DNA of 58,858 nt, taken from Planctomycetaceae bacterium. Its GTDB lineage: Bacteria; Planctomycetota; Planctomycetia; Planctomycetales; Planctomycetaceae. Positions 3,338 through 55,515 of the stretch are shown here, piece after piece; position 1 is the first letter of the stretch, and every line of letters begins with the position of its first letter. Location: assembly GCA_049790855.1 (NCBI GenBank), contig JBAQZJ010000088.1:1-58858 (forward strand), written 5' to 3'. The position numbers and the translations under genes are program-made. Below the pieces are notes generated by a model. That model did no database searches, was not told the origin of the DNA, and saw only the letters and a list, made by a program, of their open reading frames with translations.

Positions 3338-3373
3338 GGGTGAGTCCGTCGGTTCCGGGGTGTCATGAAAAAT

Positions 3374-8519: not shown

Positions 8520-8583
8520 CGACTCGAAGGCGGAGTCAAGAATCCTGTTGACCCCGCAGAACATGGACAAGATAATGTCCAGT

Positions 8584-9092: not shown

Positions 9093-9101
9093 CGGTCCGC
9101 C

Positions 9102-10109: not shown

Positions 10110-10529
10110 ATGACCAAGATGATTTTCGTGAACCTGCCCGTGACGGACCTCGCCGCGTCGATGGCGTTCTACAAGGCGCTCGGCTTCGTGAACAATCCGA
10201 CTTTCTCGGACGAGACTGGCTCCTGCATGGTCTGGAGCGAGGCGATCCACGTCATGCTGCTCACCCATGCCAAGTGGCGCACGTTCACCGACCGTCCGAT
10301 TCCGCCCGCCAACTCCAGCGAAGTGTCGCTTGCCTTGACGTGCGACAGTCGCGAGGCCGTCGACGCGATGAACGAGACGGCTGCGGCGAATGGCGGCACA
10401 GCCGACGTCAACCCCGTCCAGGAACTCGGCTTTATGTACGGCCGAGACCTGCTGGACCCCGACGGGCACATCTGGGGGCCTTTTTGGATGGACCCCGCCG
10501 CGATTCCCGCAGGCGATCAGGCAGGCTGA
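10110..10529 (+). CDS. VOC-family (glyoxalase/bleomycin-resistance fold) protein
   Basis: MIFVNLPVTDLAASMAFYKALGF...GRDLLDPDGHIWGPFWMDP is typical of small VOC proteins. Confidence 0.8.
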   Translation: MTKMIFVNLPVTDLAASMAFYKALGFVNNPTFSDETGSCMVWSEAIHVMLLTHAKWRTFTDRPIPPANSSEVSLALTCDSREAVDAMNETAAANGGTADVNPVQELGFMYGRDLLDPDGHIWGPFWMDPAAIPAGDQAG

Positions 10530-10542
10530 AAACGCACCAACG

Positions 10543-10571
10543 AAAAAGCCCACCGGCCGCCGCCGGTGGGC
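10543..10571 (-). terminator. Rho-independent terminator downstream of sat
   Basis: Perfect 10-bp stem GCCCACCGGC/GCCGGTGGGC (10548-10557/10562-10571) with a 4-nt loop. Followed on the minus strand by TTTTT (10543-10547). Confidence 0.7.
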
Positions 10572-10580
10572 TTCGCAATC

Positions 10581-10617
10581 TACTACATCCTACTTCCCAT
10601 ATCCCACATCCTACTTC
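10581..10617. repeat. CTACATCC/CCCACATCC-type heptamer-like repeat, a copy outside the prophage
   Basis: tactacatcctacttcccatatcccacatcctacttc. Same motif family as the tracts upstream of the start codons at 36546, 39398 and 42867. Here it overlaps the sat stop codon and 3' UTR. Confidence 0.7.
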
Positions 10618-11870
10618 GCCGCCATCGCCTCGCCGAGAATCTTCGACGTGCTCGGCCGCATGATGCGGGGATCGACCATCTCGCCCTTCTGAAGCGTCGC
10701 GCGGACGTCTTTGCCCGAGATGAACACCGGCTTTTCGTCCTTGTGGTTCTCCATCAGGTCGACGCGGCCGGCCGATTCGTAGTAGGCGGCGAAGCCGACC
10801 TTCACCGGCTGGATTTGCAGGTCGCCGTTCAGCTTGCCGAAGATCTCCTGGGCGTCGAAGTCGCCCCAGATCGCGCTGCCGTCGTGGTAGGGGGCGTCGG
10901 CGTGCTTGCGGCCGATGACGATGTTCGTGTAGCCGAAGTTCTGGCGGTAGATGCTGTGCATCACCGCTTCCTTCGGACCGCCGTAGAACATCTTGATGTC
11001 GGTTCCCAGCAGCACGACCCGATCGGGAACCGCCCCGCCGACCTTGCTCCACAGTTCGGCGTCGCTGTCGCCTTCGCCCAGGCCGCGGTCGGCGATCAGC
11101 CGCTCGTAGGTCTTCATGCGGACGACGGCGTTGACGTCGTCTCCCTTCGTCTCGCCGACGAGCGGGTTGAGCACCGCCCCGGCGTTCTTGCCGCGACGCA
11201 GCAGCTCTTCCAGACCATAGACGAGGGCGTACTCGTGAGCGCGGTGCAGGGGGTTGCGGGTCTGGAAGGCGACGACGGCGTCCCAGCCCTTCGACGCGAC
11301 GAGCTTCCGCGTCTCGCGGGGCGAAAGGACGTACTTGCCGAAGTCGGGGTTCTTCGGCTGCGGCAGGGCGCGGAGCTTGCCGCCGATGAGGTGCGTCTTG
11401 TCGGCGTCGCCCTTCAGGACCATGTCGGCCCCCGGATGGTCGGTGCGGTCGGTGCCGTAAACGCTCTTGATGTATTGCGGCTTGTCCCACTCGAAGACGC
11501 TCTCGACCTCGACGGTGGCGACGACGTCGCCGCCGTTGCTCGTCAGGGCGACCGTCTGGCCTTCTTTGATCTGCTTCGCGAGTTCGGCGGTGACCGGGAA
11601 GGCGAGCGGAATCGTCCAGGCGTACTTTTTCCCGTTCGACTCGATGACGGCTTCGTCGAGAACGCGGTCGTAGACCGCCTTGGTCATCGGCCCGACGAGC
11701 GGGCTGAGCGTGCCGTCGGCGATGCGGTAGACGGTCGACAGATCGGCCGCCGAGACGGGAACCTTGGTCAGCGTCGCGGCCTCGGCCTGAAAGGCGGCGC
11801 GTTCGGCTTCGGGAACGGTGCGGTCGACCGGCTCGGCAAGCCCTCCGTGAACGGGAATCAGATCAGCCAT
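10611..11870 (-). CDS. sat: Sulfate adenylyltransferase (ATP sulfurylase)
   Basis: [14 protein letters not shown] motif and overall ATP-sulfurylase architecture. Homology starts at [10 protein letters not shown] (ATG at 11870). The track ORF extends to 12023 through non-protein-like sequence. Confidence 0.9.
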
Positions 11871-22209: not shown

Positions 22210-22281
22210 CCGTCGTCTGTTGTGAGCGTTTGCCACGCAGCCCGGGATTCGAGCGATGTTCCGCAGAGAGAGCGTGACGCA

Positions 22282-25200
22282 ATGCTGACATCGGCCAAAC
22301 AATCGACCTTGTGCCGGCTCACGCTGGTGATGCTGATCGTCTGTGGTCAGGTCGCCTCCGTCATGGCAACGCCGGCTACGGCTCAGGATTCCGTTCCCTT
22401 CGCCGATTGCGACACGAACGGAGACGGTCGGGTCAGTCTGTCGGAGTATCTGTCCCGTCAGGACAGCCCGGACGCACGACTCCGGTTTCACAGAATGGAC
22501 GACGACGAGAACGGCTCGCTGACCGAAGCCGAATGGAACCGCCGGGATCGTAGCGGGACGATCCCCGCCCGCCGATTGTTTCGCGGCTACGACGCCGACG
22601 GAAATGGAAGGCTGTCAGCGGATGAGTGGCTGACGCCGGTGCCGCCGGAGGCTCGGACGGAGTTCGAACAGAAGGCCAAGGTCTTCGATTTCGATCGCGA
22701 TGGGACGTTGTCCTATGAGGAGTTCACTGCAATCCCGGGCCTGGTCGCTGAACGGGAGCGGGGGGCGGTCCCCGATCCGATCGAACGACTCGCGAATCGC
22801 ACCGCCAGGCGCATCCTCAAGGCAACACGCGTGCCGGTTCCTGCCGACGCTTGGTCCGCCGTCGTGGATAGTCATCTCGGAGCCGGAATTCCTGCGACGA
22901 TCGCTCTCTGGGATCGCAACGGTGATCGACAAATCGACGCCGAGGAGATTCCGTCGGGAATCGAATTGGCTTACGGTGTCCGACGCGCCTCGACGGCCTC
23001 GGCCAGAACGCCGTCCGGCAGAGTCTGGAACGCGAACTATTTTCGCTCCCTCGATGCCGACGGCGACGGAGTCTGGACGGCGGAGGAATTTCTCTCCCGG
23101 CACCCAGCCGACCAGGAACGGGCGAATCAAGAGTTCCTGTCAGGGGACCTCGATTCAAACGGTCGCCTCGAACGGGACGAAGTCGATAAGGCGGGCCTCA
23201 GTCACTTCGATGTTCCGGTCCAATTCCTGCTCTGGGATTCCGACGGTGACGGCCTGGTCGGCGACGATGAACTGTCGGAGAATGCACGAAGTTGGGATCG
23301 AAACATCGCGGTGCATCTCCTGCCGGGATTCGACTCGGACGGTGACGGCGCACTGTCGCTGCTCGAATTTCGGGACACGCCGCTCGGCAATCCGCTGGCC
23401 GACTGGAATGCGGTTCGAAAGGACGCGAACGGCGACGGACGATTGGATCACGATGAGTTCTTCCGCCCGAACGGTTTGGCCTTGTCCGGCCTGGCGGCGC
23501 ACTTTTTTGACGGATTCGATCGCGACCAGAACGGCGCTCTCGACTTCACCGAGTTCGAATTTGACGTTGATCTCGACCGTGTGCCGGCCTCCCATCTGTT
23601 CGAGGCGTTGGATCGTGATCGGGACGGTCAACTCTCGCTTGGCGAGGCGTTTGCCCCTCCGGACGTCTCGATTGCGGCCGGTCGACCGTTGCTTCCGCCT
23701 CATCGGCTGGTTTTTCTTGACGCCGACGCTGACGGGGATCAGCGGCTGACGCGTACTGAGTTTTCGGCCGAGATCGCCGTGCGCCGGGCCGTCGTGGACG
23801 AGCGGTGGTACTGGCGCGTCGCGTGGCCCGGATTCCGCAAAGCGGACGTCGATCAGGACGGACAACTCAGTCTTTCGGAGTTGTTGGCGAGCGTCCCGGA
23901 GGACCGACATCCCGTCGCGACTCGAGACTTCCGGATCTTCGATTTCGACGGGCAGGGCGGTCTCGATTTCGCCGAGTCCGTCTGCATGCCGGGCGTCGTG
24001 CCGGCGTCGCGCCGCGGCCCGGTACCCGATCCGGTCGCCGACCGGTTGCACAACGAATTGTCCCAGGCGCTCGACCTCTTCGGCCAGGAGAACGGCGGGC
24101 GGCACCGCCTCGGCCGGGAGGATTGGGACGAGGCGACCACCGGCCGATGGTATTCGTCTCGCTTCAGCGAGATCGACCGTGATGGAGACGGCGGCGTCTC
24201 CGCCCAGGAGCTTCGCGCCGGGTTCGCCGTGATGTTCGGACTTCGAAGCGAGGACGGAAGCGAACTTCGACGCCGTTCCGGTCTCGTTTTCAACTGGAAC
24301 ACGTTCTTCGTGGTCTGGGATCAGGACGGCGACATGCGGCTTTCCAGAGAGGAGTTCGTTCCCCGGTTCTGGCGGGGATCGGAGGCAGCGGAACGACAGT
24401 TTGCCGGGGCCGATTCCGACAAGGACGGTTTTCTCGCGCCGGACGAGTTGGCGGCGACGGACTTCGTCTGGGTGGACGTCGTCGATCGGTTCCGGACGCT
24501 GGACAAGAACCTCGACGGGAGCCTGGATCCGGCCGAGCTTGATCAGGGGCTCGCCGCGTGGGAACGGCCGTATCTCGACCAACTCTGGCCGAGCTACGAC
24601 GCGGATGCCGACGCGCGGTTGACGTTCGAGGAGTTCCGTGCCACCCCGTTGGGGAACCCCGTTCTCGATTGGCGGGGCCGGTCCTATGACCAGGACGACG
24701 ACGGTCGACTGAGTCTGGCCGAATTCCATCCCGCGGACGGTCTCCGCTTCCTGGGGACGTCGAAAGTCTTCTTCGACAGGGTCGACCGTGACGGAAACGG
24801 CTCGCTCGACCTGTCCGAATTCGACTTCGACGTCGACTTCGGCCGCGTCCCCGCTCGCGTCGTGTTTCAGGCCGTCGAGCGGAATCAGGACGGGCGGTTG
24901 ACGTTGCGAGAAACGGTCGAGTCCCTCAGAGGATCCGATTCGGCCTTGGAGGCGATGAGTTCCTCGCTCCAGCGTCCGTTTCAGGAGAACGACCGGAACG
25001 GCGACGGCGTTCTGGACGCCGGCGAGTTCGCTGCCGCGGCTGATTTTCACGCGGCGATTCGAAGAGTCGTCTGGCGACACCGCAATTCCCGTCCGAAGTT
25101 TTTGAGACGAGACCTCAATGGCGACGGTTTTGTCGATCGCGACGAGTGGCTGGCGGATCGAGCGGACAACGAATTACCGGAGGCCGGATACGACTTCGTC

Positions 25201-26502
25201 CTGTGTGACTTCGACGGTGACGGGCGCCTTTCATTCAATGAGTTCTCCTGCGTCCCGAGTGTTGCCCCGCCTGCTCGTCGCGGGAATGTTCCCGACCCGA
25301 TCGTCGAACTGGTCGACAGCCTGCTGAAATCCATTGAAGGTCATGATCCGAATGAGGTGTCGGCGACGATCGCCGGGCAAACCGCGGGGGCGGCCCCGCT
25401 CGACGTCGTGCAAGGCTGGGACTCCGACCAGGACGGGCGGCTGACGGATTGGGAGCTCCGGCAAGGTGTTGAAATCCTTTTCGGCATTCGAGATCCGGAC
25501 GGCACGCCCTTGCGGCGTGAGACGGGCCAGGTGTTCGAGTTGCGTACTTTTCAGTCCTATGACCGGAGCGCCGACGGTGTGCTCGCGAAGCCGGAGTTTG
25601 TCGAGCGATACTGGGGCGGAGAGGAGCAGGCCGGGGAGGTCTTCACGGCGGCGGATACCGATGGAAACGGCGGGCTCACGGTCCAGGAAGCCGCCGGCGG
25701 CGACTTGTTTTGGGGCGACAGCCTGAGCTTGTTTCGCAGGTTCGATACGGATCGAAGCGGAGATCTGGATGCCAGCGAGCTGGCGAAAGCCGCCAAGCCC
25801 TGGGAGACCGCTTATCTCGAAATGGCGTTCCCGGGATTTGACGCTGACGGAGACGGCACGCTTTCGTTTCGGGAGTTTCGCGAAACACCGTTCTGCAATC
25901 CGCTGGCCGACTGGAATCGTCGGCGTGCCGACAGGAATCATGACGGCCGTCTCTCGCTGGATGAGTTTCATGACGGCAAGTCACCGGCCCGCCGAGGATT
26001 GTCCTCGTTGTTTCTCGCGCGACTGGACCGCGACTCGGACGGCCGCCTGTCAGTCCCCGAACTGGATTTCTCGGTCGATCTCCGTCGTGCTCCGATCGAA
26101 GTCGTCTTCGCGACGCTCGATGCGGACAGAGACGCCGCTTTGACGCTTTCGGAGGCCGTCGGCAAGGCTCCTGCTCCGGGAAACCCGGTTGCCCTACAAA
26201 ACTGGAACGAGCGGTCGATGCTTCTTGAGGACGCGTTTCGCATCGCAGACCATGACCAGAACGGTCGGTTGTCGCTCGAGGAATTCCTGAGGCCGGGGTC
26301 GGCGATCACGGATCTCGTCGTCGGTCGCAACCCGTCCCGGACGGTTTCCCGTCGCGCAAGAGATCCCGAAACGACTGGGAGCGCGCCTGCGAACGCGTCA
26401 CCAGCCGCCTCCTGGAACAGGCGGTTCGTCGCCCTTGTCGTCTTTGACGTGATTCTGTTGCTCGCACTGATCTGGGGAGGGCTTCGACGGGCGCGTCGTT
26501 GA
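22282..26502 (+). CDS. Giant secreted/anchored EF-hand repeat (Ca-binding) protein
   Basis: Signal peptide (LTLVMLIVCGQVASVMATPATAQD), dozens of DxDxDGxLxxxE loops and a C-terminal TM anchor (FVALVVFDVILLLALIWGGL). The track ORF starts at a GTG at 22222; the ATG at 22282 is more plausible. Confidence 0.85.
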   Translation: MLTSAKQSTLCRLTLVMLIVCGQVASVMATPATAQDSVPFADCDTNGDGRVSLSEYLSRQDSPDARLRFHRMDDDENGSLTEAEWNRRDRSGTIPARRLFRGYDADGNGRLSADEWLTPVPPEARTEFEQKAKVFDFDRDGTLSYEEFTAIPGLVAERERGAVPDPIERLANRTARRILKATRVPVPADAWSAVVDSHLGAGIPATIALWDRNGDRQIDAEEIPSGIELAYGVRRASTASARTPSGRVWNANYFRSLDADGDGVWTAEEFLSRHPADQERANQEFLSGDLDSNGRLERDEVDKAGLSHFDVPVQFLLWDSDGDGLVGDDELSENARSWDRNIAVHLLPGFDSDGDGALSLLEFRDTPLGNPLADWNAVRKDANGDGRLDHDEFFRPNGLALSGLAAHFFDGFDRDQNGALDFTEFEFDVDLDRVPASHLFEALDRDRDGQLSLGEAFAPPDVSIAAGRPLLPPHRLVFLDADADGDQRLTRTEFSAEIAVRRAVVDERWYWRVAWPGFRKADVDQDGQLSLSELLASVPEDRHPVATRDFRIFDFDGQGGLDFAESVCMPGVVPASRRGPVPDPVADRLHNELSQALDLFGQENGGRHRLGREDWDEATTGRWYSSRFSEIDRDGDGGVSAQELRAGFAVMFGLRSEDGSELRRRSGLVFNWNTFFVVWDQDGDMRLSREEFVPRFWRGSEAAERQFAGADSDKDGFLAPDELAATDFVWVDVVDRFRTLDKNLDGSLDPAELDQGLAAWERPYLDQLWPSYDADADARLTFEEFRATPLGNPVLDWRGRSYDQDDDGRLSLAEFHPADGLRFLGTSKVFFDRVDRDGNGSLDLSEFDFDVDFGRVPARVVFQAVERNQDGRLTLRETVESLRGSDSALEAMSSSLQRPFQENDRNGDGVLDAGEFAAAADFHAAIRRVVWRHRNSRPKFLRRDLNGDGFVDRDEWLADRADNELPEAGYDFVLCDFDGDGRLSFNEFSCVPSVAPPARRGNVPDPIVELVDSLLKSIEGHDPNEVSATIAGQTAGAAPLDVVQGWDSDQDGRLTDWELRQGVEILFGIRDPDGTPLRRETGQVFELRTFQSYDRSADGVLAKPEFVERYWGGEEQAGEVFTAADTDGNGGLTVQEAAGGDLFWGDSLSLFRRFDTDRSGDLDASELAKAAKPWETAYLEMAFPGFDADGDGTLSFREFRETPFCNPLADWNRRRADRNHDGRLSLDEFHDGKSPARRGLSSLFLARLDRDSDGRLSVPELDFSVDLRRAPIEVVFATLDADRDAALTLSEAVGKAPAPGNPVALQNWNERSMLLEDAFRIADHDQNGRLSLEEFLRPGSAITDLVVGRNPSRTVSRRARDPETTGSAPANASPAASWNRRFVALVVFDVILLLALIWGGLRRARR
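22762..26200 (+). repeat. Three tandem ~420-aa (~1.26 kb) super-repeats inside the EF-hand gene
   Basis: Anchor motif RG(A/P/N)VPDP recurs at nt 22762, 24016 and 25282. The flanking blocks are colinear (FDFDxxGxLxFxE..., F(R/E)xTP(L/F)xNP(L/V)(A/L)DW, DF(T/S)EF(E/D)FDVD...). The end coordinate is approximate. Confidence 0.75.
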
Positions 26503-45593: not shown

Positions 45594-47028
45594 CCGGCTC
45601 CTCGTCGTGGCGTTGATCCGCTGCTGGCGCAGGACCTGTCAGTCCCAGTTCGCTCATCAGCGCGAGCTCCTTGGCCCGCTGGCGCAATTGCGTTTCCCAG
45701 TCAAGACCGCGGCGGGCATACTCGTCCGCATAGGTCGTCGTGTGGTTCGCCAGCCGCAGCGCCTGGGCGCTCGATTCCTTGAGCGGATCGACATGCTCGT
45801 GGCCGTCGAAGAACCAGGTGTGCGGCGGCAGCTCGCCCCTGTTCCGCGCGGCGCCGGCGAGCAGTCCGGGAATCAGCGCCGCTTCGGCGAGCCAGGCCGC
45901 GAAGATCCGGTCGAGCACGACCGATTCGAGCTGCGCCTGCTCGACGCGGATCGCCTTGAAATACATCTGGTGGTCGAGCCGGCCGGAGGCGTAGTTGTAG
46001 CCCGAGGAGTTGCCGGCCGAGATCGCAAAGGGCATGTTCAGGCAGCGAGCGATCTCGTTGAGGATCTCGCGCTTGAACTCCCCGTAAGTCGTCGTCGGTT
46101 GCGAGGCCTCGAGCTGGCTCATCTTCCAGCCGCCCGGCATCGTCATCAGCATTCCGCGCTCAAGCTCGATGAGGTCCATCGGCTCGACCGATTCCGCCTC
46201 GCCGTTCGCCGGCGCGTCGGTGTAGAGCACGCCGCCCGGCAGCGCCGCAATCTCGGCGGCGGTGATCACCGCCAGCGTGTAGCGCCGCAGGTGCGCGAAC
46301 AGCGGCAGCGCGGGCGTGATGTCCGGGACACCTCGCGCCTGGCCCGCCCGGTCCTGGCGGAAGTAATGGATCACGAGGCGGGCCGGGAGGCGGACGTAGT
46401 CGCCGAAAGGTCCGCCGGCCGGTTCGCCGGGATGCTGCTTGAGAACGTGGTATTCGAGCGGGTTGCCGAAGCGGTCGAAGACGATCCCGTCGATGGCGTT
46501 CGGTTCGAGGCCGAAGAGGTCGGGCGTCGTGACCTGATCCGCTTCGATCAGTCGCAAGTCGAGCTGCACGGGCGTCGGCAGGGTCGGGTTGGTGATCAGC
46601 GTCGCGAATCCCTCACCGTCGGACGCCCGCGCCATCCGCAGCGTCCGCAGTTTCTCCGGGAGGCCCACGCTGCGGGACCAGGTCATCCACTCCTGTTCGA
46701 TCCGCCGGTTGAGCGGATCGTGTTCCGTCAGCAGCTGCAGCCGGGGTCCGGTGCCGATGACATCGTTCGCCAGCGTCAGCACGATCCCGCGGGCGTAGCT
46801 GTTGTTGGCGACCTCGTATCGAGCGCGGTTCCGCAGCAGCCGGCGGATCTCCGGGCTGTTCGCGGCGTTCGCCGAGAGGTTGTCGGCGTTCGCCCAGTGC
46901 CGGCGGTTTTCATCGCTGGTGACCGCCGCGTCGTAGCGGGCGCGGATCAGCCGCAGCGCCTGCACGACCGCCGGCGACGGACCTGCCGGCCGCGGCGTCG
47001 GCAAAAGCGTCTTGAGCCACGCCAGCAC
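45562..47028 (-). CDS. Portal protein, lambda (gpB) family
   Basis: ...NRRHWANADNLSANAANSPEIRRLLRNRARYEVANNSYARGIVLTLANDVIGTGPRLQ... fits the lambda-family portal. A GTG start at 47028 is proposed (GGGAG upstream, 2 nt after the W-like stop). The track ORF extends to 47478 through Arg-rich non-protein-like sequence, so the start is uncertain. Confidence 0.8.
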   Translation of the reverse strand: MLAWLKTLLPTPRPAGPSPAVVQALRLIRARYDAAVTSDENRRHWANADNLSANAANSPEIRRLLRNRARYEVANNSYARGIVLTLANDVIGTGPRLQLLTEHDPLNRRIEQEWMTWSRSVGLPEKLRTLRMARASDGEGFATLITNPTLPTPVQLDLRLIEADQVTTPDLFGLEPNAIDGIVFDRFGNPLEYHVLKQHPGEPAGGPFGDYVRLPARLVIHYFRQDRAGQARGVPDITPALPLFAHLRRYTLAVITAAEIAALPGGVLYTDAPANGEAESVEPMDLIELERGMLMTMPGGWKMSQLEASQPTTTYGEFKREILNEIARCLNMPFAISAGNSSGYNYASGRLDHQMYFKAIRVEQAQLESVVLDRIFAAWLAEAALIPGLLAGAARNRGELPPHTWFFDGHEHVDPLKESSAQALRLANHTTTYADEYARRGLDWETQLRQRAKELALMSELGLTGPAPAADQRHDEEPDAENEDKDDA

Positions 47029-47033
47029 CGTCA

Positions 47034-47237
47034 GGAGGCTCCCGGTGGAGCGAGTTTCGTGAACCGCAGCCCGCGGGCTTTGGATGCGGCGGCCTGCTTC
47101 GAGGCGAGATAGCGATCCACCTCGATCTGATCCTTGAGGGAATGCTGTTTGACGCTGCCCGAATCGCCGCTCGCTTCGGCCGGTCCCTGGGCGTTTTCGC
47201 GAATCGCCTGGTCGAGGCTGGCGTCGGCGGTCGGCAG
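47034..47237 (-). CDS. gpW-like small head-tail joining protein (no canonical start codon; absent from the ORF track)
   Basis: 69-codon open frame (47034-47240) with strong GC3 bias: TLPTADASLDQAIRENAQGPAEASGDSGSVKQHSLKDQIEVDRYLASKQAAASKARGLRFTKLAPPGAS. Its stop is at 47031-47033, just before the portal start. The only early start candidate is CTG at 47235-47237, with AGGGGGA 7 nt upstream. Confidence 0.55.
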
Positions 47238-47362
47238 TGTTCAGTCCCCCTACTGTTAGGCTTTCCGATTCGGGGGCAATCGGGCGGTGACGTTCCGAAA
47301 AGATTCCGGGTTGCCGCCGAAGCCGATCACGACGCCTGACGCTGGCACCGGCCAAACCGCGC

Positions 47363-47391
47363 TTGTGCGGACATCTTTCGTCCGGTAAGAT
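47363..47391 (+). promoter_or_regulatory. Sigma-70-like promoter candidate for the plus-strand cassette
   Basis: TTGTGC (47363-47368), a 17-nt spacer, then TAAGAT (47386-47391). Followed by AAGGAG (47404-47409) and GTG at 47417. Confidence 0.35.
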
Positions 47392-47416
47392 TTCGTTACC
47401 ACAAAGGAGCTTGGCC

Positions 47417-47707
47417 GTGCAAAACGATTCCGTCCGTTCGACTGTCCTCTGCTGCCTGAAGAGGTTTCTCGAATCCACAGGGCGACAGGCGGCAGAGCTG
47501 CACCCCGGTGCTCACCTCATGCAGGATCTGGGACTCTCCAGCGACGAGGGGGTGGATCTCGTCCTGGATCTCTGCGAAGCCCTGCATTGCGAACTGCCGC
47601 ACGATTTCAACCCTTGCGTTCACGAATCCGAGCAGCGGGACCGTCAAATCTCCGAATTGGTCGAGCGGGTCGAGCATCTCGTCGCGAGCGCAGGGACCGC
47701 AGCATGA
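47417..47707 (+). CDS. Acyl/peptidyl-carrier-protein-like small protein
   Basis: LMQDLGLSSDEGVDLVLDLCEALHCELP aligns by eye with E. coli ACP [28 protein letters not shown], with a Ser at the phosphopantetheine position. GTG start with an AAGGAG SD. The ATGA overlap at 47704-47707 couples it to the XRE gene. Confidence 0.45.
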   Translation: MQNDSVRSTVLCCLKRFLESTGRQAAELHPGAHLMQDLGLSSDEGVDLVLDLCEALHCELPHDFNPCVHESEQRDRQISELVERVEHLVASAGTAA

Positions 47708-48060
47708 ACTCCCCATCGACGCATCCCGCCGCAATCGGACAGCGACTGCGCTGGGCCCGCGAGCAAGCGGGCCTGTCGCAGGGGCAGGTCGCCCGCATGC
47801 TGGAATACCATCGACCGACCATCTCTCAGATCGAGGCCGGGAAGCGGATCGTCCGCCCGGACGAGATCGAGCGATTTGCCGACATCTACGGCGTGAAGGC
47901 GGTCTGGATCCTGCGCGGCGACGCGGCCTTTGCGGAAGAACAGGATCCGCGGATTGAACTGGCGGCGCGGGAGCTCTCGAAACTGCGTCGCGAGGATCTC
48001 GACGCCATCCTGCGGTTGATCAAAATCATGCGCACCGAGGAGAGCGACACGTATGGGTGA
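47704..48060 (+). CDS. XRE-family HTH transcriptional regulator
   Basis: IGQRLRWAREQAGLSQGQVARMLEYHRPTISQIEAGKRIVRPDEIERFADIYGV is a canonical HTH_3 domain. Helical C-terminal tail. Confidence 0.85.
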   Translation: MNSPSTHPAAIGQRLRWAREQAGLSQGQVARMLEYHRPTISQIEAGKRIVRPDEIERFADIYGVKAVWILRGDAAFAEEQDPRIELAARELSKLRREDLDAILRLIKIMRTEESDTYG

Positions 48061-48922
48061 TCGGACCTCCTTGGGGCGGATCGCGATGCGAAGTGCGCTG
48101 CAGCTGCGGCGGATGCTATCCGTTTCTCGCGAAGCCCCCGTCAACGTCTATGACGTGGCCCTTGCCCTCGGTGTCGAAGTCCAGTTCGTCGACCACCCAT
48201 CGCTGGAAGGGATGTTCTATCGCGGACCGAATCCGAAAATCCTGCTCCCGTCGTGGCGGCATCGGCCGAAGGGACGCATCGCCTTCTCGTGCGCCCACGA
48301 ACTGGGTCATTTTCAATTGGGGCACGGCACTCACGTCGACGAGTATCTCGACGATTCGCAAGGACGGGGACCAAAGTCTGACGCGGAGTTTGCAGCGGAT
48401 ACCTTCGCCGCGAGTCTGCTGATGCCGCGTCAAGCCGTCGTTGAGCGGTTCGTGCGGCGGCACTGGGACGTATCCCTCGCGAGCCCGACGCAGTTATTCA
48501 TCGTGGCCGGAGAGCTCGGCGTCGGCTACACGACATTGCTGCAGCACATGTGCTACGGCCTCGAACTGGTAACCGATGGTTGGCTGAAGGATCGTCTCAA
48601 AGCGAGTTCCAAAGAGATTCGGCAGGCCGTCACGGGAGTGTGCAACCCGCCGCGGACCATCGTGATTGACGAGGAATGGTCCGGGAGCCCGATCGACCTG
48701 GAGGTCGGCGATGCCGTCGCTCATCTTCCCGGCCTGACGGTCGCTGGTGGAGACGTCATCGAAAGGGCAGGTGGTGTGGGAGACTACGCAATCTGGCTCG
48801 GTCGTCGCGCCGGAGAATCAAACCTCGAGATCAACGGCCGAAGACACCGCGTCCGGGTTGCCCGAACGGGCTATTGTGGACTGCTCAAGTACCGATTCCT
48901 CGACGATCCGGACGAAGCATGA
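48053..48922 (+). CDS. ImmA/IrrE-family (COG2856, M78) zinc metallopeptidase with an extra C-terminal domain
   Basis: SCAHELGHFQLGH (HExxH) and EFAADTFAASLLMP motifs. About 100 aa of unassigned C-terminal domain. 8-nt overlap with the XRE gene. Confidence 0.85.
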   Translation: MGDRTSLGRIAMRSALQLRRMLSVSREAPVNVYDVALALGVEVQFVDHPSLEGMFYRGPNPKILLPSWRHRPKGRIAFSCAHELGHFQLGHGTHVDEYLDDSQGRGPKSDAEFAADTFAASLLMPRQAVVERFVRRHWDVSLASPTQLFIVAGELGVGYTTLLQHMCYGLELVTDGWLKDRLKASSKEIRQAVTGVCNPPRTIVIDEEWSGSPIDLEVGDAVAHLPGLTVAGGDVIERAGGVGDYAIWLGRRAGESNLEINGRRHRVRVARTGYCGLLKYRFLDDPDEA

Positions 48923-49737
48923 CTCTCGCGGGCCCCTTGGTGATCGAATCAACCTGTCTTTCCCACGCTTGGGGAAAGGCCTTCCTGCATGCCTTCGATA
49001 CTCCCCGGCGCGGACTGTGTCCGCTGCTGCTCTCTGTCGACGGGCTGTTGAATCAGCCGCCGACGGAAGACCCGGTATTGCGTGCGAGGGTGGACGCGGT
49101 CCTCGCCGAGCACGGAATGAATAGTGTTCGCGTCTCTGGGCTGATGATTTTTCCTTACGAGATCTGGGTTCGCCGCGGCCGACCGCCTTGTGGCGCGTTT
49201 ACCAATTTCTGTGTCGACCAACTGGCGCCTCGCCTGAAGGCACTCGATCGACGCAATGGGTATGGCACCTACTTCGAACGCATGATGCGATTTACTGGGC
49301 TTCGCAAGGGCCGCCCGCACACGGTCGATCAACTCGAGTTCGTGATCCGCTTGTTGAAGCGGTCGCGGAGGTCCAGACACTCCGCGCTGCAGATCGCGTG
49401 TTTCGATCCGGCCAAGGATCACACGGGACAGGCCGTCCGCGGCTTCCCCTGTCTGCAGCAGGTCAGCATTGCCCAGGACGATCAGCGCCGTCTGGCGATC
49501 AACGCCTACTACCCGACACAGTACATCTTCGATCGGGCTTACGGGAACTACCTGGGCCTCTGCCATCTCGGTCAATTCCTGGCTCACGAGACCAATTCAA
49601 CCTTCGTGCGGCTCAGCTGCTACGTCGGCCAACCGATCCTGGGAAACGTCTCGAAGCGCGATGTGCGATCGCTGGCCGAGTTCGTGCGAACAAGAATCGA
49701 CGGTGACGCCGGAGGAAAATCCGACAATGGCGACTGA
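48919..49737 (+). CDS. Thymidylate-synthase-fold (ThyA/dCMP-hydroxymethylase superfamily-like) protein, divergent
   Basis: TVDQLEFVIRLLKRSRRSR...GFPCLQQVSIAQDDQRRLAINAYYPTQYIFDRAYGNYLGLCHLGQFLA parallels ThyA HIDQITTVLNQLKNDPDSRR...[46 protein letters not shown]. ATGA overlap with immA-like at 48919-48922. Confidence 0.55.
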   Translation: MTLAGPLVIESTCLSHAWGKAFLHAFDTPRRGLCPLLLSVDGLLNQPPTEDPVLRARVDAVLAEHGMNSVRVSGLMIFPYEIWVRRGRPPCGAFTNFCVDQLAPRLKALDRRNGYGTYFERMMRFTGLRKGRPHTVDQLEFVIRLLKRSRRSRHSALQIACFDPAKDHTGQAVRGFPCLQQVSIAQDDQRRLAINAYYPTQYIFDRAYGNYLGLCHLGQFLAHETNSTFVRLSCYVGQPILGNVSKRDVRSLAEFVRTRIDGDAGGKSDNGD

Positions 49738-50644
49738 ATTGACTCTGCGCGAGTATCAGCGGGAGGCCGCACGAACCGATCAAATGTCTGGGAGTGACTT
49801 AACAGCGATGATGGTGCCGCTCCTGGGATTAGCAGGTGAAGCCGGTTCCCTGTTGACCGAATATAAGAAGTGGTTGCGCGAAGGGGACCGATACAAGCCG
49901 TTCACCGACCAGGTCGCGGAAGAAATCGGCGACATGTTGTGGTATCTCGCGAACATCGCCGCGAAGGCCGGCTTGGACCTGCAGGAGGTCGCGGAAGAGA
50001 ACCTGGCCAAGCTGCACGACCGCTGGGCCCTGGCGGATCGATCGGGATCAGCCCTCTTCGTCCAGGGACACTACGACGAACATTTCCCGGAGACGGAGCG
50101 GCTGCCGCTCCGCATGCGCGTCGAGTTCCGCGAAGGCGTGATTGACGGCGCATCCAAGCTGGTGATCACCTGCGACGGGAAGCCCTTCGGCCATCCGCTC
50201 ACCGACAATTCACATATCGAGGACGGCTATCGCTACCACGATGTGTTTCACGTCGCCTGTGCCATCCTGTTGGGCTGGTCACCGATCGTCCGCAAGTTCT
50301 TGAAGGTGAAACGGAAGTCCGTTCCCCAGATCGATGAAGTCGAGGACGGGGCGCGCGCCGCGGCGATCGAAGAGGCGATCTCGGCGTTCACGTTCGGAGC
50401 GGCTCGAGACTACTCGTTCTTCGACGGCTCCGATGCCGTCGAGTTCGGGATTCTTCGCACGATTCGCGTCATGACGCGATCCCTCGAGGTCCGCGACCGG
50501 AGTCTGCGAGATTGGGAAGACGTCATTCTCAAGACTTACGCAGTCTGGCGACAGCTCGTCGAGAAACGCGGCGGCGTGGTCGTCGGTGACGCTGCGACGA
50601 GAACGCTGCGCTATGAGCCACTCGCGCCCGTTCCGAAGGACTGA
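49727..50644 (+). CDS. MazG-like nucleoside-triphosphate pyrophosphohydrolase domain plus ~190-aa C-terminal domain
   Basis: LTLREYQREAARTD...LLGLAGEAGSLLTEYKKW...EEIGDMLWYLANIAAKAGLDL is the all-alpha MazG/EExxE pattern. The C-terminal half (YRYHDVFHVA...DGARAAAIEEAISAF) may be a second degenerate MazG-like repeat. 11-nt overlap with the upstream gene. Confidence 0.7.
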   Translation: MATELTLREYQREAARTDQMSGSDLTAMMVPLLGLAGEAGSLLTEYKKWLREGDRYKPFTDQVAEEIGDMLWYLANIAAKAGLDLQEVAEENLAKLHDRWALADRSGSALFVQGHYDEHFPETERLPLRMRVEFREGVIDGASKLVITCDGKPFGHPLTDNSHIEDGYRYHDVFHVACAILLGWSPIVRKFLKVKRKSVPQIDEVEDGARAAAIEEAISAFTFGAARDYSFFDGSDAVEFGILRTIRVMTRSLEVRDRSLRDWEDVILKTYAVWRQLVEKRGGVVVGDAATRTLRYEPLAPVPKD

Positions 50645-50648
50645 GGTC

Positions 50649-51209
50649 TCACGCGGCCTGTCGGCGCCGTCGTTTCGGATGGAACCGCTGCAAGGGCGTC
50701 TTGGCGGAGAGATAGAGCGGGTGACGCGGACAGCCGGCCTTCGTGACGCCGAGACAATGGACGTCATCCAAGCCCGCCAAGACGGCTGCGTCTCGGCTGA
50801 ACAGCGCGCCGTGATTACCCCAGGCAGCGACGATGCGATCCGCCCGCACTTGTTCGACGGCGATCCAACGGTCGTTGTCGGGACCAATGGGATCGTCGAC
50901 GTCGCTCAACGCCGACGGATCAGTGGTCCGGTAGGCGAACAGGTTGACGAGCGTCAGTGATCCGAATCCCCAACGCTCGGCAAATCCGAGGCAGCGACGA
51001 ACCGTGGGATCGTCGCGCTGGTCGTCCGCCGTGGATGGATTCAGGCCGATGAACAGGATCCGCGGAAGGGAGCGGCTCCACGTGCGCGACAACGTGTACC
51101 GGTACGTCTGGCAAGGCGATAAGCGGGCTGATCTTCGCATCCGTGCTTCCAGTCCGTGAGCGTTCTTCGTTGACGTGGATCGAAGTCGTGATGTTGTATC
51201 GTGTTTCAT
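50649..51209 (-). CDS. DUF1643-family protein
   Basis: ...LSPCQTYRYTLSRTWS...ILFIGLNPSTADDQRDDPTVRRCLGFAERWGFGSLTLVNLFAYR...AWG... matches the DUF1643 pattern. Start uncertain (51209 or 51140). Co-directional with terL. Confidence 0.7.
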   Translation of the reverse strand: MKHDTTSRLRSTSTKNAHGLEARMRRSARLSPCQTYRYTLSRTWSRSLPRILFIGLNPSTADDQRDDPTVRRCLGFAERWGFGSLTLVNLFAYRTTDPSALSDVDDPIGPDNDRWIAVEQVRADRIVAAWGNHGALFSRDAAVLAGLDDVHCLGVTKAGCPRHPLYLSAKTPLQRFHPKRRRRQAA

Positions 51210-51273
51210 GATCGCTGGCAGCCCCGGCCAGATCAAAGGGTGTGAGAATGATCCGCTGCCGAACCGACAGGGA

Positions 51274-53634
51274 TCAGAAAATGCCTTTCCTGAGACGGCG
51301 TTGGCCGCGCATTCCCTGACGCCTCTCGCGTTGAATCTTCGATAGAGTAAGATTTCGGGACGAGGATTGGGGATTCGTCGTATCTGCCAACAGGGCTACT
51401 CCAAGAACTGAAGCCGCCACGGCGCAGCCCACGAGACCGTCGAGCCAGTGGTTGTCCGGCTGGCCGGGACGGGGCTTCCATTCATCGACGGTGCGGCCGC
51501 GGCCTTCGGTGCGGACGCGGTATTCGGCCGTGAGATGCTCGGCGAACAGCCGATGCGCCTCCGGCTGCTGGCCATAGAGCGCCAGCGACCCCTTGTCGGC
51601 CATCGCCACCGCCAGTCGCGCGAAGACGAACGACTTCCAGAAGTTCGTGTCGAACGAGACGTGCCGCACGGCCCGCTTGCCCATCACCCCCGGAATCCGC
51701 CAGTTGAGACCGGTCCGATCGCCCGGCCGCCGCTTGTAGTCGGCGAACGGCAGGCTCGAGGCGCCCACGAACCGCCCGTGACAAGGCAGCAGCACCGCCG
51801 CATGCGGCGACTGCCGGCAGAACTGGTAGACGACGTCGGTCGAGGTGCCCCAGTTCGCGTCGATCAGGCAGCGTTCGATACGGAACGAGGCCCCGTCCTC
51901 CCGCTGCCATTCCCGCGTCAGCTGCCGCTCGGTCAGCATCTGCAGACCGGCATAAATCGCACCTTCGAGTCCCGTGCCCGGCGCCGTTGAGGCCAGCGTC
52001 TTCGTGACGTCCCGGAGCGTGAAGTAGGCCCGCTGAGGATCGGGCCAGGCGCCGTATTCGAGCACCGCGCCGCTGAAGTCCTCGCCCCAGCCGCAGACGA
52101 CGTAGAACAGCACCTTCTGCTGGACGTCGATGAACATCGTCAGGTGCTGGCAGCCGAGCGGCACGCGGCCTTTCGGCAGTCCGTTGAGCTTGGCAGCGAT
52201 CTGGTCGGCGGTCAGCTCGTTTTCGTCGGCCTGCACCTCCGGCAGCGGCTCGTTCTGGTATTCCGCCCAGAAGGCCGCCTCGTCCTGGAGCTTGAGATTC
52301 ATCGCATGCTGGATCGCCGAGAGCTCGTCGTAGTTGAACCGCTCCGGCCAGGCGATCGCCGCTCCGGCATCCATCTCAATACGGTGCCGGCGATAGAACG
52401 CCGTCGCCGCCGCACCGCCGTCCTCGTTGCGGAGGCCCTCAGCCCGGATCTCGGCGTAACGGTCCCAGAGCTTCGTCTCGGTCGGGAAGGCATAGACCAT
52501 TCGCGTCCGTTCACCCTGCCAGGCGGGATGGTGATCCCGGTTGAGAATGCGGTCCGCCATGTCGCCGGGCCGGATCACGGTACAGGGCATGATCCCGGAG
52601 ATCTTGTGCCCTGGTCCGGCGAGGCCGAGGACGGCACCGGCGAGGATGCTCTCCCGCTGCTGACATTGGGAGACGGAGCGGGCAGACTCGTCCGTCTGCG
52701 GATCGTCGAGCACGACGAGCGACGGCCGAACGCTCTTGCCGTCGGGCCGTTTGAACTTCATCCCGCGAATGCGGCCGGTGATTCCCGCGACCTTGATGAT
52801 CGCGCCGCTGGCAAGCGTCCGGCCGTCGGGACGCACCAGCAGGCCGAGCCGTTCATCCTCGCTCCAGCCCTGCGGCACGAGCGTCGGCAGCACGATCGAC
52901 TTGGCCGTCCAGCCGATATGCGTGCGTTCTCCGGCATAGAGCTGGCCGCCCGCGCGATTCGCGATCCCGTCAAGCGCCTGGATCGGATGACAGACCTCGG
53001 GATAGTCCGCCAGCAGCAGGTCGTTCGCATCGAGTTCGGTCTTGATCGATTCGAGCATGTCCATCGCATGCCCTTCGTCGCTGCCGATCAGGCAGACGAA
53101 CTCGCGGTGGCCGTTGAGGACCGCCCAGATGCAGGCGCACTCGCAGATCGTCGTCTTCCCCGAGCCGCGCGGCATCGCCATCGCGAACAGGCCGCCGTGC
53201 AGCACGGCCTGTTCGATCTTGCGGAGCACCTTGAGATGGTCCGGGGACCAGGCGAGGTGAAACGACTGCGGAAAATAGGCCTCGCAGAAGAACTGGAAGT
53301 TCGTCGCTGCCTGTGATCGTCGTTCGATCGCCGCGATCGCCGGCAATCTGCCGATGTCGCGTCCCGTGGCGGAGAGTTCGGCGCTGCGCCGAGCCGCCCG
53401 GTCCTTGTGCTGCTCATAGGACGAGACGGCGGGAGAGGGCTTCGGATGGTGCCTCCGGCCCGCCAGCCAGGCGACGTAGCGAAACAGGTCGACGTGCCGC
53501 CCGTCGCCGATCCGGAAGCCGGCACGTTGCCGATCGCGATAGAGCTGCCGCTCGCTCGTCACCTCACCGAGCGGCGTCGAGTTGAGCAGCCGGACGAGTT
53601 CGCTCGGTTTGAGCTGCCGGGGATCAATCGCCAC
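51274..53634 (-). CDS. terL: Terminase large subunit (lambda GpA-like)
   Basis: 786 aa with Walker A AMPRGSGKTT. Overall GpA-type architecture, positioned upstream of a lambda-family portal. Confidence 0.85.
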   Translation of the reverse strand: MAIDPRQLKPSELVRLLNSTPLGEVTSERQLYRDRQRAGFRIGDGRHVDLFRYVAWLAGRRHHPKPSPAVSSYEQHKDRAARRSAELSATGRDIGRLPAIAAIERRSQAATNFQFFCEAYFPQSFHLAWSPDHLKVLRKIEQAVLHGGLFAMAMPRGSGKTTICECACIWAVLNGHREFVCLIGSDEGHAMDMLESIKTELDANDLLLADYPEVCHPIQALDGIANRAGGQLYAGERTHIGWTAKSIVLPTLVPQGWSEDERLGLLVRPDGRTLASGAIIKVAGITGRIRGMKFKRPDGKSVRPSLVVLDDPQTDESARSVSQCQQRESILAGAVLGLAGPGHKISGIMPCTVIRPGDMADRILNRDHHPAWQGERTRMVYAFPTETKLWDRYAEIRAEGLRNEDGGAAATAFYRRHRIEMDAGAAIAWPERFNYDELSAIQHAMNLKLQDEAAFWAEYQNEPLPEVQADENELTADQIAAKLNGLPKGRVPLGCQHLTMFIDVQQKVLFYVVCGWGEDFSGAVLEYGAWPDPQRAYFTLRDVTKTLASTAPGTGLEGAIYAGLQMLTERQLTREWQREDGASFRIERCLIDANWGTSTDVVYQFCRQSPHAAVLLPCHGRFVGASSLPFADYKRRPGDRTGLNWRIPGVMGKRAVRHVSFDTNFWKSFVFARLAVAMADKGSLALYGQQPEAHRLFAEHLTAEYRVRTEGRGRTVDEWKPRPGQPDNHWLDGLVGCAVAASVLGVALLADTTNPQSSSRNLTLSKIQRERRQGMRGQRRLRKGIF

Positions 53635-54750: not shown

Positions 54751-55515
54751 GTGCCCGCCCTGTTGCATTTGCCGCCCGGCACGCGGTTCCGACAGCCCGA
54801 CCTGGGTCTGATCGGAACGCTGGTGCGGGTCAATGAGTGCTGCGCGATGGTCCGCGTCGACCAGCCCGAGCGCCTCGTCGCCATTCGCGGCAAGGGCGGC
54901 GCGACGCGGGAATTCTTCGCGCACCGGTCCACGCTCGTGGCGTGGACCCCGTCCGTGCGGGTCTTGCCTTTGGGGCAGACTCGCGTTGTTCCACCCCGTA
55001 ACGAAGGAGACGACACGATGGCGACGACCAAATCTCAGACGACCAGGAAGTCCTCCGCGAAATCGGCGGCCACGAAGACGACGCCGGCCAAGGCCACGAA
55101 ACCGACCAAGGCGAAATCCGGAAGCACCGAACGCAAACTCAGTGCCCTCGACGCGGCGGCGAAGCTGCTCGGCGAGGTGAACGCCCCGCTCACGGCGAAG
55201 GAGATGATCGAGACAATGGCCGCCCGCGGCTACTGGACCAGCCCCGGCGGCAAGACGCCGGAGGCGACGCTCTACGCCGCGATCATTCGTGAGATCGCGA
55301 AGAAGGGCAGCGACGCCCGGTTCCGGAAGCACGACCGAGGGCGGTTCGTGGCCAGCGCCGCACCCACCGCCAAGGCCAAGCCCGCCCCTACCAAGGCCCC
55401 GGCGAAGAAGCCCACCGCGAAGAAGCCCGCGAAGAAGACCACGACGAAATCGAAAACTGCGCCGGCCGACGGCACGGCGGGGCCGAAGGCCGTTTCCGAC
55501 CTGTTCAAGATCTGA
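54751..55515 (+). CDS. HARE-HTH-like DNA-binding protein with Lys/Ala/Pro-rich histone-H1-like tails (possibly two nested products)
   Basis: LSALDAAAKLLGEVNAPLTAKEMIETMAARGYWTSPGGKTPEATLYAAIIREIAKKGSDARF fits HARE-HTH. It is flanked by KSSAKSAATKTTPAKATKPTKAK and AKAKPAPTKAPAKKPTAKKPAKKTTTKSK. An in-frame internal ATG at 55018 has a strong AAGGAG SD. Confidence 0.6.
   Translation: MPALLHLPPGTRFRQPDLGLIGTLVRVNECCAMVRVDQPERLVAIRGKGGATREFFAHRSTLVAWTPSVRVLPLGQTRVVPPRNEGDDTMATTKSQTTRKSSAKSAATKTTPAKATKPTKAKSGSTERKLSALDAAAKLLGEVNAPLTAKEMIETMAARGYWTSPGGKTPEATLYAAIIREIAKKGSDARFRKHDRGRFVASAAPTAKAKPAPTKAPAKKPTAKKPAKKTTTKSKTAPADGTAGPKAVSDLFKI

Follow-up and report, generated by a model that had tools for sequence, protein, structure and literature searches.

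What is a set of overlapping genes for a repressor, a peptidase and nucleotide-metabolising enzymes doing amongst the head genes of a prophage, and whom does it serve? The question is raised by a 58,858-nt stretch of DNA from a Planctomycetaceae bacterium (GenBank assembly GCA_049790855.1, contig JBAQZJ010000088.1; hereafter the window), in which five overlapping plus-strand genes, g1 to g5 (47417-50644), sit between the gene for the large terminase (TerL) and a W-like gene and the portal gene. In order, these encode an acyl carrier protein (ACP)-like protein, an XRE-family helix-turn-helix (HTH) repressor, an M78-type peptidase, a thymidylate synthase (TS)-like protein (TSL) and a MazG-MazG_C protein, and a sixth gene, g6, encoding a DUF1643 protein, lies beside them (Table 1). 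An earlier reading of the window by a model (the original prediction) had proposed the five genes as a candidate conflict system, and a conflict or defence role is the reading that the present analysis supports best. Most likely the six genes make up a conflict system that is autonomous and horizontally mobile and that in this genome protects the lysogen against other phages, and we give an even chance to its being an inducible anti-phage system which modifies nucleotides and travels as prophage cargo.

The gene coordinates, the gene overlaps and the AAGGAG-N7-GTG start of g1 were as originally described, the frames overlapping by an ATGA at 47704-47707 and at 48919-48922, by 8 nt at 48053-48060 and by 11 nt at 49727-49737. 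Conservation was assessed across 35 non-redundant loci, comprising the window, GTDB species representatives (all metagenome-assembled genomes, MAGs) spanning Planctomycetota, Verrucomicrobiota, Acidobacteriota, Binatia, Myxococcota and Bacteroidota, metagenome contigs, and the cultured Pseudobythopirellula maris, which carries a complete copy at about 849.2-853.0 kb of SJPQ01000001.1 in assembly GCA_007859945.1, corresponding to positions 7119-10930 of locus L035. In all of the 34 untruncated loci the HTH and M78 genes were found directly upstream of TSL on the same strand, down to 37% identity, a co-occurrence far beyond chance, and the short and divergent g1 was detected in most loci. The g3 stop and the g4 start, which share an ATGA in the window, also overlap in the annotated loci L001, L002 and L004. 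With the HTH, M78 and TSL genes together in 34/34 loci and the frames overlapping, the five genes thus form one conserved, translationally coupled unit, as had been argued from the window, and the gene-neighbourhood survey shows them co-occurring widely, in some cases beside defence genes or in a prophage hotspot.

Downstream of these shared genes two architectures were found, with MazG-MazG_C in 20 loci (MazG type) and, in 15 loci (HMUDK type), a P-loop kinase and a 5-hydroxymethyl-deoxyuridine (5-hmdU) DNA kinase helical domain (PF18723), usually with a PF00303-type TS and sometimes with a dCTP-deaminase-like gene. A MazG_C-containing gene was also present in two HMUDK-type loci: in L016 (10838-14752, a Pirellulales MAG) the genes after TSL encode a kinase/5-hmdU-kinase fusion, MazG-MazG_C and an APH/protein-kinase-like protein of 447 aa with a TCAD9 domain, and L029 carries a stand-alone MazG_C of 190 aa. 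DUF1643 is adjacent to the cassette in 20/20 MazG-type loci and 0/15 of the HMUDK type, so that it is counted here as a sixth component; the originally proposed set of five is conserved as such, but the unit has six genes. DUF1643 is convergent and downstream in nine MazG-type loci and upstream and co-directional in 11, the five-gene block being turned round with respect to DUF1643 between the two arrangements, and a search for flanking repeats as a possible cause of this inversion gave none that was convincing. ACP-XRE-M78-TSL is therefore best described, to judge from gene content, as a putative portable front end joined to at least two different enzyme sets, a modularity which is typical of defence systems and which supports the defence reading.

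Alignment of the upstream regions of 11 loci revealed ten invariant columns within a 6-5-6 palindrome, TGGTAAGATnTyCTTACCA, which encloses TAAGAT, and almost nothing else was conserved. The palindrome occurs once in the 58.9-kb window (0.04 expected) and, when searched for across loci with the strict pattern GGTA-N9-TACC, was found once per locus in 19 of 29, ~30-40 nt upstream of g1, including distant HMUDK-type loci from other phyla. An inverted-repeat search near g1 with a seed of 6 had missed this 6+5+6 element. The promoter-like TTGTGC-N17-TAAGAT that had been proposed upstream of g1 matches consensus at only 7/12 positions, and a sigma-70 consensus scan of 46900-51400 called no promoter and returned terminator-like sites at chance level, but the element is conserved in the aligned loci, most of which have a TTG(T/A)(G/C)-type -35-like hexamer ~17 nt upstream of TAAGAT. 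Since the scan calls nothing, the promoter is assigned by conservation and not by score. In co-directional loci the palindrome lies between DUF1643 and g1, which places DUF1643 outside the operator-carrying promoter in both arrangements. Because the conserved palindrome overlaps the -10-like hexamer, the XRE/M78 pair seems to be a switch for the cassette itself and not for lysogeny, and g2 would be expected to bind the palindrome and auto-repress g1 to g5.

The proteins of this putative switch belong to well-known families, and their best matches in the defence library, capH and capP, agree with the kinship that had been suggested. g2 matched HTH_31 (3.6e-19, Pfam) and PADLOC capH (1.5e-10, positions 7-101 of the 103-position model), and g3, which carries HELGH and FAASLLMP, matched Peptidase_M78 (PF06114, 5.2e-09) and PADLOC capP (2.6e-20). 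In g3, H82, E83, H86 and E112, corresponding to HExxH and the downstream Glu ligand, are invariant in 24 sequences, and the g3 profile matched CapP (7t5t, 1.8e-08) and IrrE (3dte, 1.3e-07) over the N-terminal domain only, the matches ending at about residue 133; residues 137-289 gave no Pfam match at E<=1 apart from noise. As in CapH/CapP, IrrE/DdrO of Deinococcus and ImmR/ImmA of ICEBs1, a small XRE repressor lies beside an HExxH M78 peptidase, and as in CapH/CapP-type switches there is a candidate palindromic operator at the controlled promoter; unlike those switches, no cysteine-switch loop is evident in the pair. By analogy with CapP/CapH, IrrE/DdrO and ImmA/ImmR, g3 may relieve repression by cleaving g2.

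TSL is the most divergent of the enzymes. g4 gave no Pfam match at E<=0.01, PF00303 failing to recognise the family, and its match to the archaeal TS model TIGR03283 (7.5e-10, 38.6 bits) is below the cut-off of 174.55. Its AlphaFold2 (AF2) model (predicted local distance difference test, pLDDT, 84.6) returned 82 PDB matches at E<=1e-3 using Foldseek, the top ones all from the TS family with template modelling (TM) scores of ~0.5-0.6, and matched ThyA (7.5e-06), the phage HY126 dCMP hydroxylase (9iqu/9iqc) and the CMP hydroxymethylase MilA (5jnh), so that on the model g4 is predicted to have a TS fold. The TSL profile gave no match to PDB sequences, and hhalign of TSL against single sequences of ThyA or of the TS of DS-4, a defence system considered below, was not significant. 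A weak profile-profile alignment of TSL with TS (E 0.0021) provisionally pairs C178 with ThyA C146, R206 with R166, the R153 region with R126/R127 and E81 with E58. About 50 residues are invariant in TSL overall, in stretches such as ...DPAKDHTGQxVRGFPC178LQQV... and ...FDR206AYGN..., and include the FPC cysteine and the arginines aligned to the phosphate-binding arginines of ThyA (R206, R153). In the same weak alignment ThyA D169 falls on TSL G209, with N210 adjacent, and ThyA N177, H207 and Y209 are not aligned; as the base-, sugar- and folate-contact residues of ThyA are not recovered, the substrate and cofactor of TSL cannot be assigned. The protein therefore lies outside the ordinary ThyA and dCMP-hydroxymethylase models whilst keeping the FPC cysteine, in line with its original description as divergent. 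The most conserved stretch of the family, DPAKDHTGQxVRG (g4 residues 163-177, before the catalytic cysteine), is also the sole internal segment with pLDDT <50, and the DS-4-type TS carries an insertion at the same place (DRDTNDSLRKKYNLENSVDIPC). The TSL family has at least 1609 members in 90% clusters, and a profile search of 1.84 billion representatives recovered at least 1108 clusters at 50% identity; the family comes mainly from Planctomycetota, Verrucomicrobiota and Acidobacteriota.

The description of g5 as MazG-like with an extra domain was borne out by matches to MazG (PF03819, 2.4e-06, 28.2 bits against a cut-off of 22) and MazG_C (PF18722, 6e-69). In the AF2 model (pLDDT 80.4) the fold of the N-terminal domain matches DCTPP1/RS21-C6, iMazG, YpjD and DR2231, and a Foldseek search of viral structures matched the MazG N-domain alone (to phage MazGs). 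E38, E45, E65, E66 and D69 are invariant in 25 sequences, and the residue three positions past E38 is Ser41, not Glu. Given these acidic residues, together with the invariant FPC cysteine and phosphate-binding arginines of TSL, both enzymes look active as far as their sequences tell. MazG_C gave no match to solved structures (Foldseek) or to PDB sequences (profile). g6 matched PF07799 (2.3e-46) and phrog_3230 (2.4e-56), with GLNPSTAD, DDPTVRRC, NLF, AWG and HPLYL as invariant motifs; we tentatively take DUF1643 to be a member of the uracil-DNA glycosylase (UDG) superfamily, going by its Pfam clan. Members of the DUF1643 family are frequent in staphylococcal SCC elements and phages as well.

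The identity of g1 emerges from the family and not from the single sequence, which gave no match in Pfam and weak NCBIfam ACP matches (1.6e-3), below all curated ACP cut-offs. A profile of 18 g1 homologues matched 130 ACP chains among structures (best 5e-09), and Ser42, invariant in 18/18 sequences, aligns with the serine of the ACP DSL motif, the phosphopantetheine site. Fold signature and serine position thus agree with what had been proposed, and g1 is probably an acyl/peptidyl carrier-like protein. No phosphopantetheinyl transferase, adenylation or acyltransferase gene was called beside any annotated locus.

The genomic context of the cassette bears on whom it serves. Eight of the 20 MazG-type loci are phage-borne, and all eight lie between TerL and the W-like gene and portal of one phage lineage. 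In order to gauge this site, the best 80 of the 444 TerL relatives in IMG/VR (L036-L115) were compared; a W-like gene was detectable in 73, and in these the median distance from TerL to W is 337 bp, against ~4.0 kb in the window, so that the insertion claimed at this junction is real. Cargo of 0.65-4.6 kb occupies the gap in 12 of the 73 contigs and includes Tiamat TmtA (8e-73), AbiEi/AbiEii (1e-81, 3e-107) and a PDC-S02/YhcG nuclease (4e-134), as well as MerT/HMA with an ankyrin protein and a metallo-beta-lactamase-fold protein. The terminase|W junction is a defence-cargo hotspot in a large lambda-like phage lineage of environmental bacteria. The cassette itself was found in one of the 80 closest TerL relatives, and TSL in one of 2.9 million IMG/VR contigs. 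In the window, L006 and L024 the five-gene block is inverted relative to the late genes, whilst in the other five phage-borne copies (L031, L034, L117, L118 and L119) the whole cassette is co-directional with them, and antisense interference with the late operon is therefore not a conserved part of the design. The remaining 12 MazG-type loci and all 15 HMUDK-type loci have no adjacent TerL, portal or W homologue; chromosomal neighbours include Wadjet JetABCD (L001), Mrr with IS21 (L035) and IS1595 with a PemK toxin (L033), and the copies in L002 and L004 sit among ordinary cellular genes.

Cargo-bearing loci at the hotspot include L052, L071, L078, L081, L093, L104, L106, L108 and L110, and in L052, L078 and L093 the cargo consists of several open reading frames (ORFs) of 280-430 aa without a family match, which may be further unknown systems. 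Directly upstream of the chromosomal cassette in L033 lies a gene (3217-7341, minus strand) for a 1374-aa protein without a Pfam match, close in size to the 1375-aa Tiamat TmtA-like protein of L108 (5404-9531, minus strand) in the phage hotspot.

How far is such a system already described? DS-4 (DefensePredictor, PMC13092281) consists of a TS, a P-loop kinase, a 5-hmdU DNA kinase, TIR and NMAD, and its phage defence was validated in E. coli. The second TS of HMUDK-type loci is a homologue of the one in DS-4 (28% identity, 2e-17), the DS-4-type 5-hmdU kinase is present in all 15 of these loci, and L015 also has the TIR (58% identity) and NMAD (48%). In this locus (3887-10851, a Verrucomicrobia MAG) ACP-XRE-M78-TSL is followed by a dCTP-deaminase-like gene, a kinase/5-hmdU-kinase fusion, TS, TIR and NMAD, which by gene content would amount to a regulated, extended DS-4. 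Like DS-4, the cassette is a cellular system built from enzymes of pyrimidine-hypermodification type, and homologues of the DS-4 TS and 5-hmdU kinase follow its front end in the sister loci; tblastn of the five DS-4 proteins gave no match in the window, matches being found in HMUDK-type sister loci only. Unlike in DS-4, the TS-fold protein of the cassette comes from a different family, and the genes listed for DS-4 include no XRE, M78, ACP or TSL.

PMC13092281 (Fig. 6F/S12B) also presents a predicted, unvalidated defence system of MazG, MazG-C, NMAD and UDG, sometimes located in defence islands, and refers to Burroughs et al. 2015 (NAR 43:10633) for earlier predictions about a number of such domains. 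Like that system, for which the figure legends are the basis of comparison, the cassette pairs MazG with MazG-C, and the legends also name a UDG-type gene; they further name NMAD, and no TS-like, M78 or ACP gene. No NMAD homologue was found in the window using tblastn with the DS-4 NMAD. Phage thymidine and cytidine hypermodification (PMC5889632, PMC8989533 and PMC13326640) involves a dUMP/dCMP hydroxymethylase or hydroxylase, a dNTP pyrophosphatase and 5-HMUDK. The superfamilies are those of the cassette, TSL resembling the HY126 dCMP hydroxylase and MilA, and the MazG domain resembling phage MazGs. Unlike these pathways, most cassette copies lie in cellular genomes under a repressor/peptidase switch, with no aGPT-Pplase, glycosyltransferase or polymerase partner in the cassette, and with a TSL that PF00303 misses.

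The literature searched contained no description of the ACP-XRE-M78-TSL front end, and nothing combining DUF1643 with MazG, mentioning MazG_C/PF18722, or tying CapH/CapP to MazG or TS; Iyer 2017 (polyvalent proteins) and the 2026 BREX survey do not mention the cassette's domains. The original statement that the combination is undescribed thus stands for the front end but has to be qualified by the precedents in PMC13092281, namely DS-4 and the MazG/MazG-C system. Overall the cassette appears to fit a known kind, a repressor/peptidase-gated defence made from nucleotide-modifying enzymes, plus an unexplained carrier-like component.

The trigger, repressor cleavage, enzymatic activities and phenotype that we infer for an inducible, nucleotide-modifying defence would combine as follows. 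At rest, g2 bound to the palindrome overlapping the -10 region would repress the operon g1 to g5, itself included. An infection or DNA-damage signal would activate the g3 peptidase, g2 would be cleaved and the operon de-repressed, as in CapP/CapH, IrrE/DdrO and ImmA/ImmR. The MazG domain would then hydrolyse a (d)NTP to the monophosphate, TSL would modify a pyrimidine nucleotide at C5 by means of its conserved cysteine, and MazG_C, a kinase by others' prediction, would process the TSL product. DUF1643, outside operator control and assumed to be a UDG-superfamily glycosylase, would excise the resulting base from DNA. The net effect would be either that replicating DNA is poisoned or fragmented, or that a canonical dNTP runs short, and in either case phage replication would be blocked.

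Several observations weigh against this scheme. The ACP-like protein finds no role in it, and PADLOC-DB v2 holds no model matching g1, g4, g5 or g6. Described CapH/CapP pairs lie upstream of, and divergent from, the operon that they regulate (10.1101/2022.04.27.489752), whereas g2 and g3 are embedded between g1 and g4 in the operon that they presumably control, and are co-directional with TSL in all 34 untruncated loci. The C-terminal half of g3, unlike that of CapP and IrrE, gives no match to an ssDNA-binding HTH+GAF sensor, and neither a GAF nor any other sensor domain was detected in g3 by profile or Pfam searches, so that a DNA-damage trigger is only an analogy. MazG-C is labelled a 'predicted nucleotide kinase' in PMC13092281, but no kinase-like structural match was obtained for MazG_C. 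For DUF1643, the profile matched no PDB sequence, and hhalign against a family-4 UDG (with an approximate query sequence) placed GLNPS on GEGPG without significance. Finally, the phage-borne copies are confined to one site of one phage lineage, and with five of the eight co-directional with the late genes the cassette could equally serve the phage.

This last possibility, that the cassette is a phage-serving module which during lytic growth makes a modified pyrimidine or places it in phage DNA, removes uracil or dUTP, or counters a host defence attacking the dNTP pool, with the XRE/M78 switch coupling expression to prophage induction, is one we consider unlikely. It would account for the eight of 20 MazG-type loci between TerL and W/portal, five of which run with the late operon, and it draws on the facts that TS homologues, MazG-type pyrophosphatases and the 5-hmdU DNA kinase are enzymes of phage pyrimidine hypermodification (PMC5889632 and PMC8989533), that MazG and DUF1643 have PHROG families, and that XRE/ImmA switches respond to the DNA-damage signal which induces prophages. 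It does not account for the 27 loci without adjacent phage genes, which where neighbours are annotated sit among cellular genes, defence genes or insertion sequences, nor for the rarity of the cassette among its closest TerL relatives and in IMG/VR. Sister phages hold the host-type defences Tiamat, AbiE and PDC-S02 at the same site, the cassette in the window lacks a DNA polymerase, transferase or aGPT-Pplase partner, and the sister architecture is homologous to the validated defence system DS-4. The induction-gated DNA modification originally offered as the alternative to defence is weakened by the same 12/20 MazG-type loci without TerL, portal or W and by the single TSL-bearing contig in IMG/VR. 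The swapping of enzymes behind four invariant genes could also mean that ACP-XRE-M78-TSL senses and regulates whilst the variable genes (MazG-MazG_C/DUF1643 or the DS-4-like set) are the effectors, TSL, with or without the ACP-like protein, binding a nucleotide that signals infection, such as a phage-made 5-modified pyrimidine nucleotide, or registering a dUMP/dTMP imbalance, and thereby licensing repressor cleavage. The g3/g4 ATGA overlap fits a complex of this kind, g3 without the GAF sensor of CapP/IrrE would need another sensor, and L015 has a complete DS-4-like set behind the front end, DS-4 itself working alone in E. coli. A catalytic cysteine and ~50 invariant residues would be expected of an enzyme sooner than of a binding protein, however, and no precedent for a TS-fold sensor was found, and we regard this as quite unlikely; it is possible that TSL is both enzyme and sensor.

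A stress-repair role, in which DNA-damage-inducible pool sanitation and base excision are controlled like the Deinococcus IrrE/DdrO regulon and are simply mobile, appears improbable. g2 and g3 resemble IrrE/DdrO as much as CapP/CapH, the MazG N-domain resembles the house-cleaning enzymes DCTPP1, DR2231 and YpjD, and limiting uracil in DNA is a task to which a TS, a dUTPase-like enzyme and a uracil glycosylase would each contribute; such a role nevertheless leaves unexplained both the ACP-like protein and a back end with 5-hmdU DNA kinase, TIR and NMAD homologous to DS-4, and it sits poorly with a TSL far from housekeeping ThyA and with a patchy, accessory distribution linked to mobile elements (the prophage hotspot, insertion sequences and Wadjet/Mrr neighbours). 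A long shot is that the invariant pairing of ACP-like and TS-fold proteins reflects an undescribed carrier-linked nucleotide chemistry: the TS-fold enzyme would generate an electrophilic C5-exocyclic-methylene pyrimidine intermediate, from a nucleotide or from (pyro)phosphorylated 5-hydroxymethyl-uracil supplied by the MazG_C or 5-hmdU-kinase partner, and the carrier would trap it through its phosphopantetheine thiol or its serine, the protein-nucleotide or protein-DNA adduct acting as an immune signal or as a replication-blocking lesion. Hardly credible, by comparison, is that the genes are chance neighbours, the XRE/ImmA pair being the prophage lysogeny switch and the enzymes unrelated morons. 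XRE+ImmA pairs do control the induction of mobile elements (ImmR/ImmA), but here g2 and g3 are co-inherited with g4, and mostly with g1, in overlapping frames, the candidate operator lies at the cassette's own promoter and only there in the window, and the pair sits in the head-gene region, from terminase to portal, and not in an early or immunity region. That the pair accompanies the cassette outside prophages too, with a conserved operator of its own at the cassette promoter, led us to reject the lysogeny-switch reading.

Should the cassette prove to be a defence system, the few immune systems known to make or alter nucleotides rather than cut DNA would gain a widespread family, found mainly in phyla (Planctomycetota, Verrucomicrobiota and Acidobacteriota) whose phage defences are almost unstudied. 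A front end attached to a DS-4-homologous set offers a way into the triggering of DS-4-type systems, three uncharacterised protein families (TSL, MazG_C and DUF1643) become available for testing, and the copy in cultured Pseudobythopirellula maris makes experiments possible.

Table 1. Features of the cassette and of the adjoining phage genes in the window.
Feature	Coordinates	Strand	Description
Promoter-like element	47363-47391	+	-35-like TTGTGC (47363-47368), 17-nt spacer, -10-like TAAGAT (47386-47391)
Palindromic operator candidate, 17 bp	47384-47400		GGTAAGATTTCGTTACC; family consensus GGTAAGATnTyCTTACC; overlaps the -10-like hexamer
Shine-Dalgarno-like AAGGAG	47404-47409	+	7 nt before the g1 GTG; AAGG(A/G)G conserved in the upstream alignment
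g1	47417-47707	+	GTG start, 96 aa, acyl-carrier-protein-like, invariant Ser42
g2	47704-48060	+	118 aa, XRE-family HTH repressor, CapH-like
g3	48053-48922	+	289 aa, M78/ImmA-type zinc peptidase, HELGH, E112, C-terminal half of ~150 aa
g4 (TSL)	48919-49737	+	272 aa, divergent protein with predicted thymidylate-synthase fold
g5	49727-50644	+	305 aa, MazG-type NTP pyrophosphohydrolase fused to MazG_C (PF18722)
g6 (DUF1643)	50649-51140	-	~163 aa counted from the Met conserved in homologues; convergent with g5
Large terminase, gpA type	51274-53634	-	GpA_nuclease 8.4e-25; 444 relatives in IMG/VR
Lambda-family portal	45562-~47030	-	Phage_portal_2 3.1e-59, domain from residue 195 of the listed ORF
W-like small gene preceding the portal	47031-47240	-	Conserved in relatives; present in 73/80 related viral contigs

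The window has a G+C content of ~65%, and a minus-strand, lambda-like head module occupies its right part. G+C is 0.58-0.64 in the cassette and 0.65-0.70 in the flanking phage genes, a difference which suggests that the cassette is acquired DNA. The stops of g5 and DUF1643 (50644-50649) are only 4 nt apart in convergent genes, and no terminator-like structure was found; the two transcripts, and late-operon read-through from the terminase, must overlap. Frame analysis places the true start of the portal gene near 47030, the listed ORF extending further upstream. The W-like protein has homologues of 68-78% identity in L006 (78%), L024 and L034, and neither it nor the Nu1-like protein matched a Pfam family; the W and Nu1 labels of the original prediction are thus upheld by position and conservation, not by a family match. 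The W-like ORF consists of 69 codons after a TGA and begins ACA CTG CCG, with none of the starts ATG, GTG and TTG; translation may begin at CTG or at some other rare codon, or the gene may have suffered damage when the cargo was inserted or inverted.

In the left half of the window the genes are cellular and of kinds typical for Planctomycetes (DUF1559/SBP_bac_10 with FGE-sulfatase, glycosyltransferases and a 1426-aa EF-hand protein), the last of these being encoded by an ORF at 22222-26502 (plus strand) with dozens of EF-hand Ca-binding motifs (EF-hand_1, 7.5e-88). On the terminase side of the cassette, a basic-tailed ORF at 54751-55515 (plus strand) resembles a HARE-HTH protein of related phages; in L031, L116 and L118 a HARE-HTH protein with a lysine/alanine-rich, histone-H1-like tail and a ParB_N-N6_N4 methyltransferase adjoin the small and large terminase genes.

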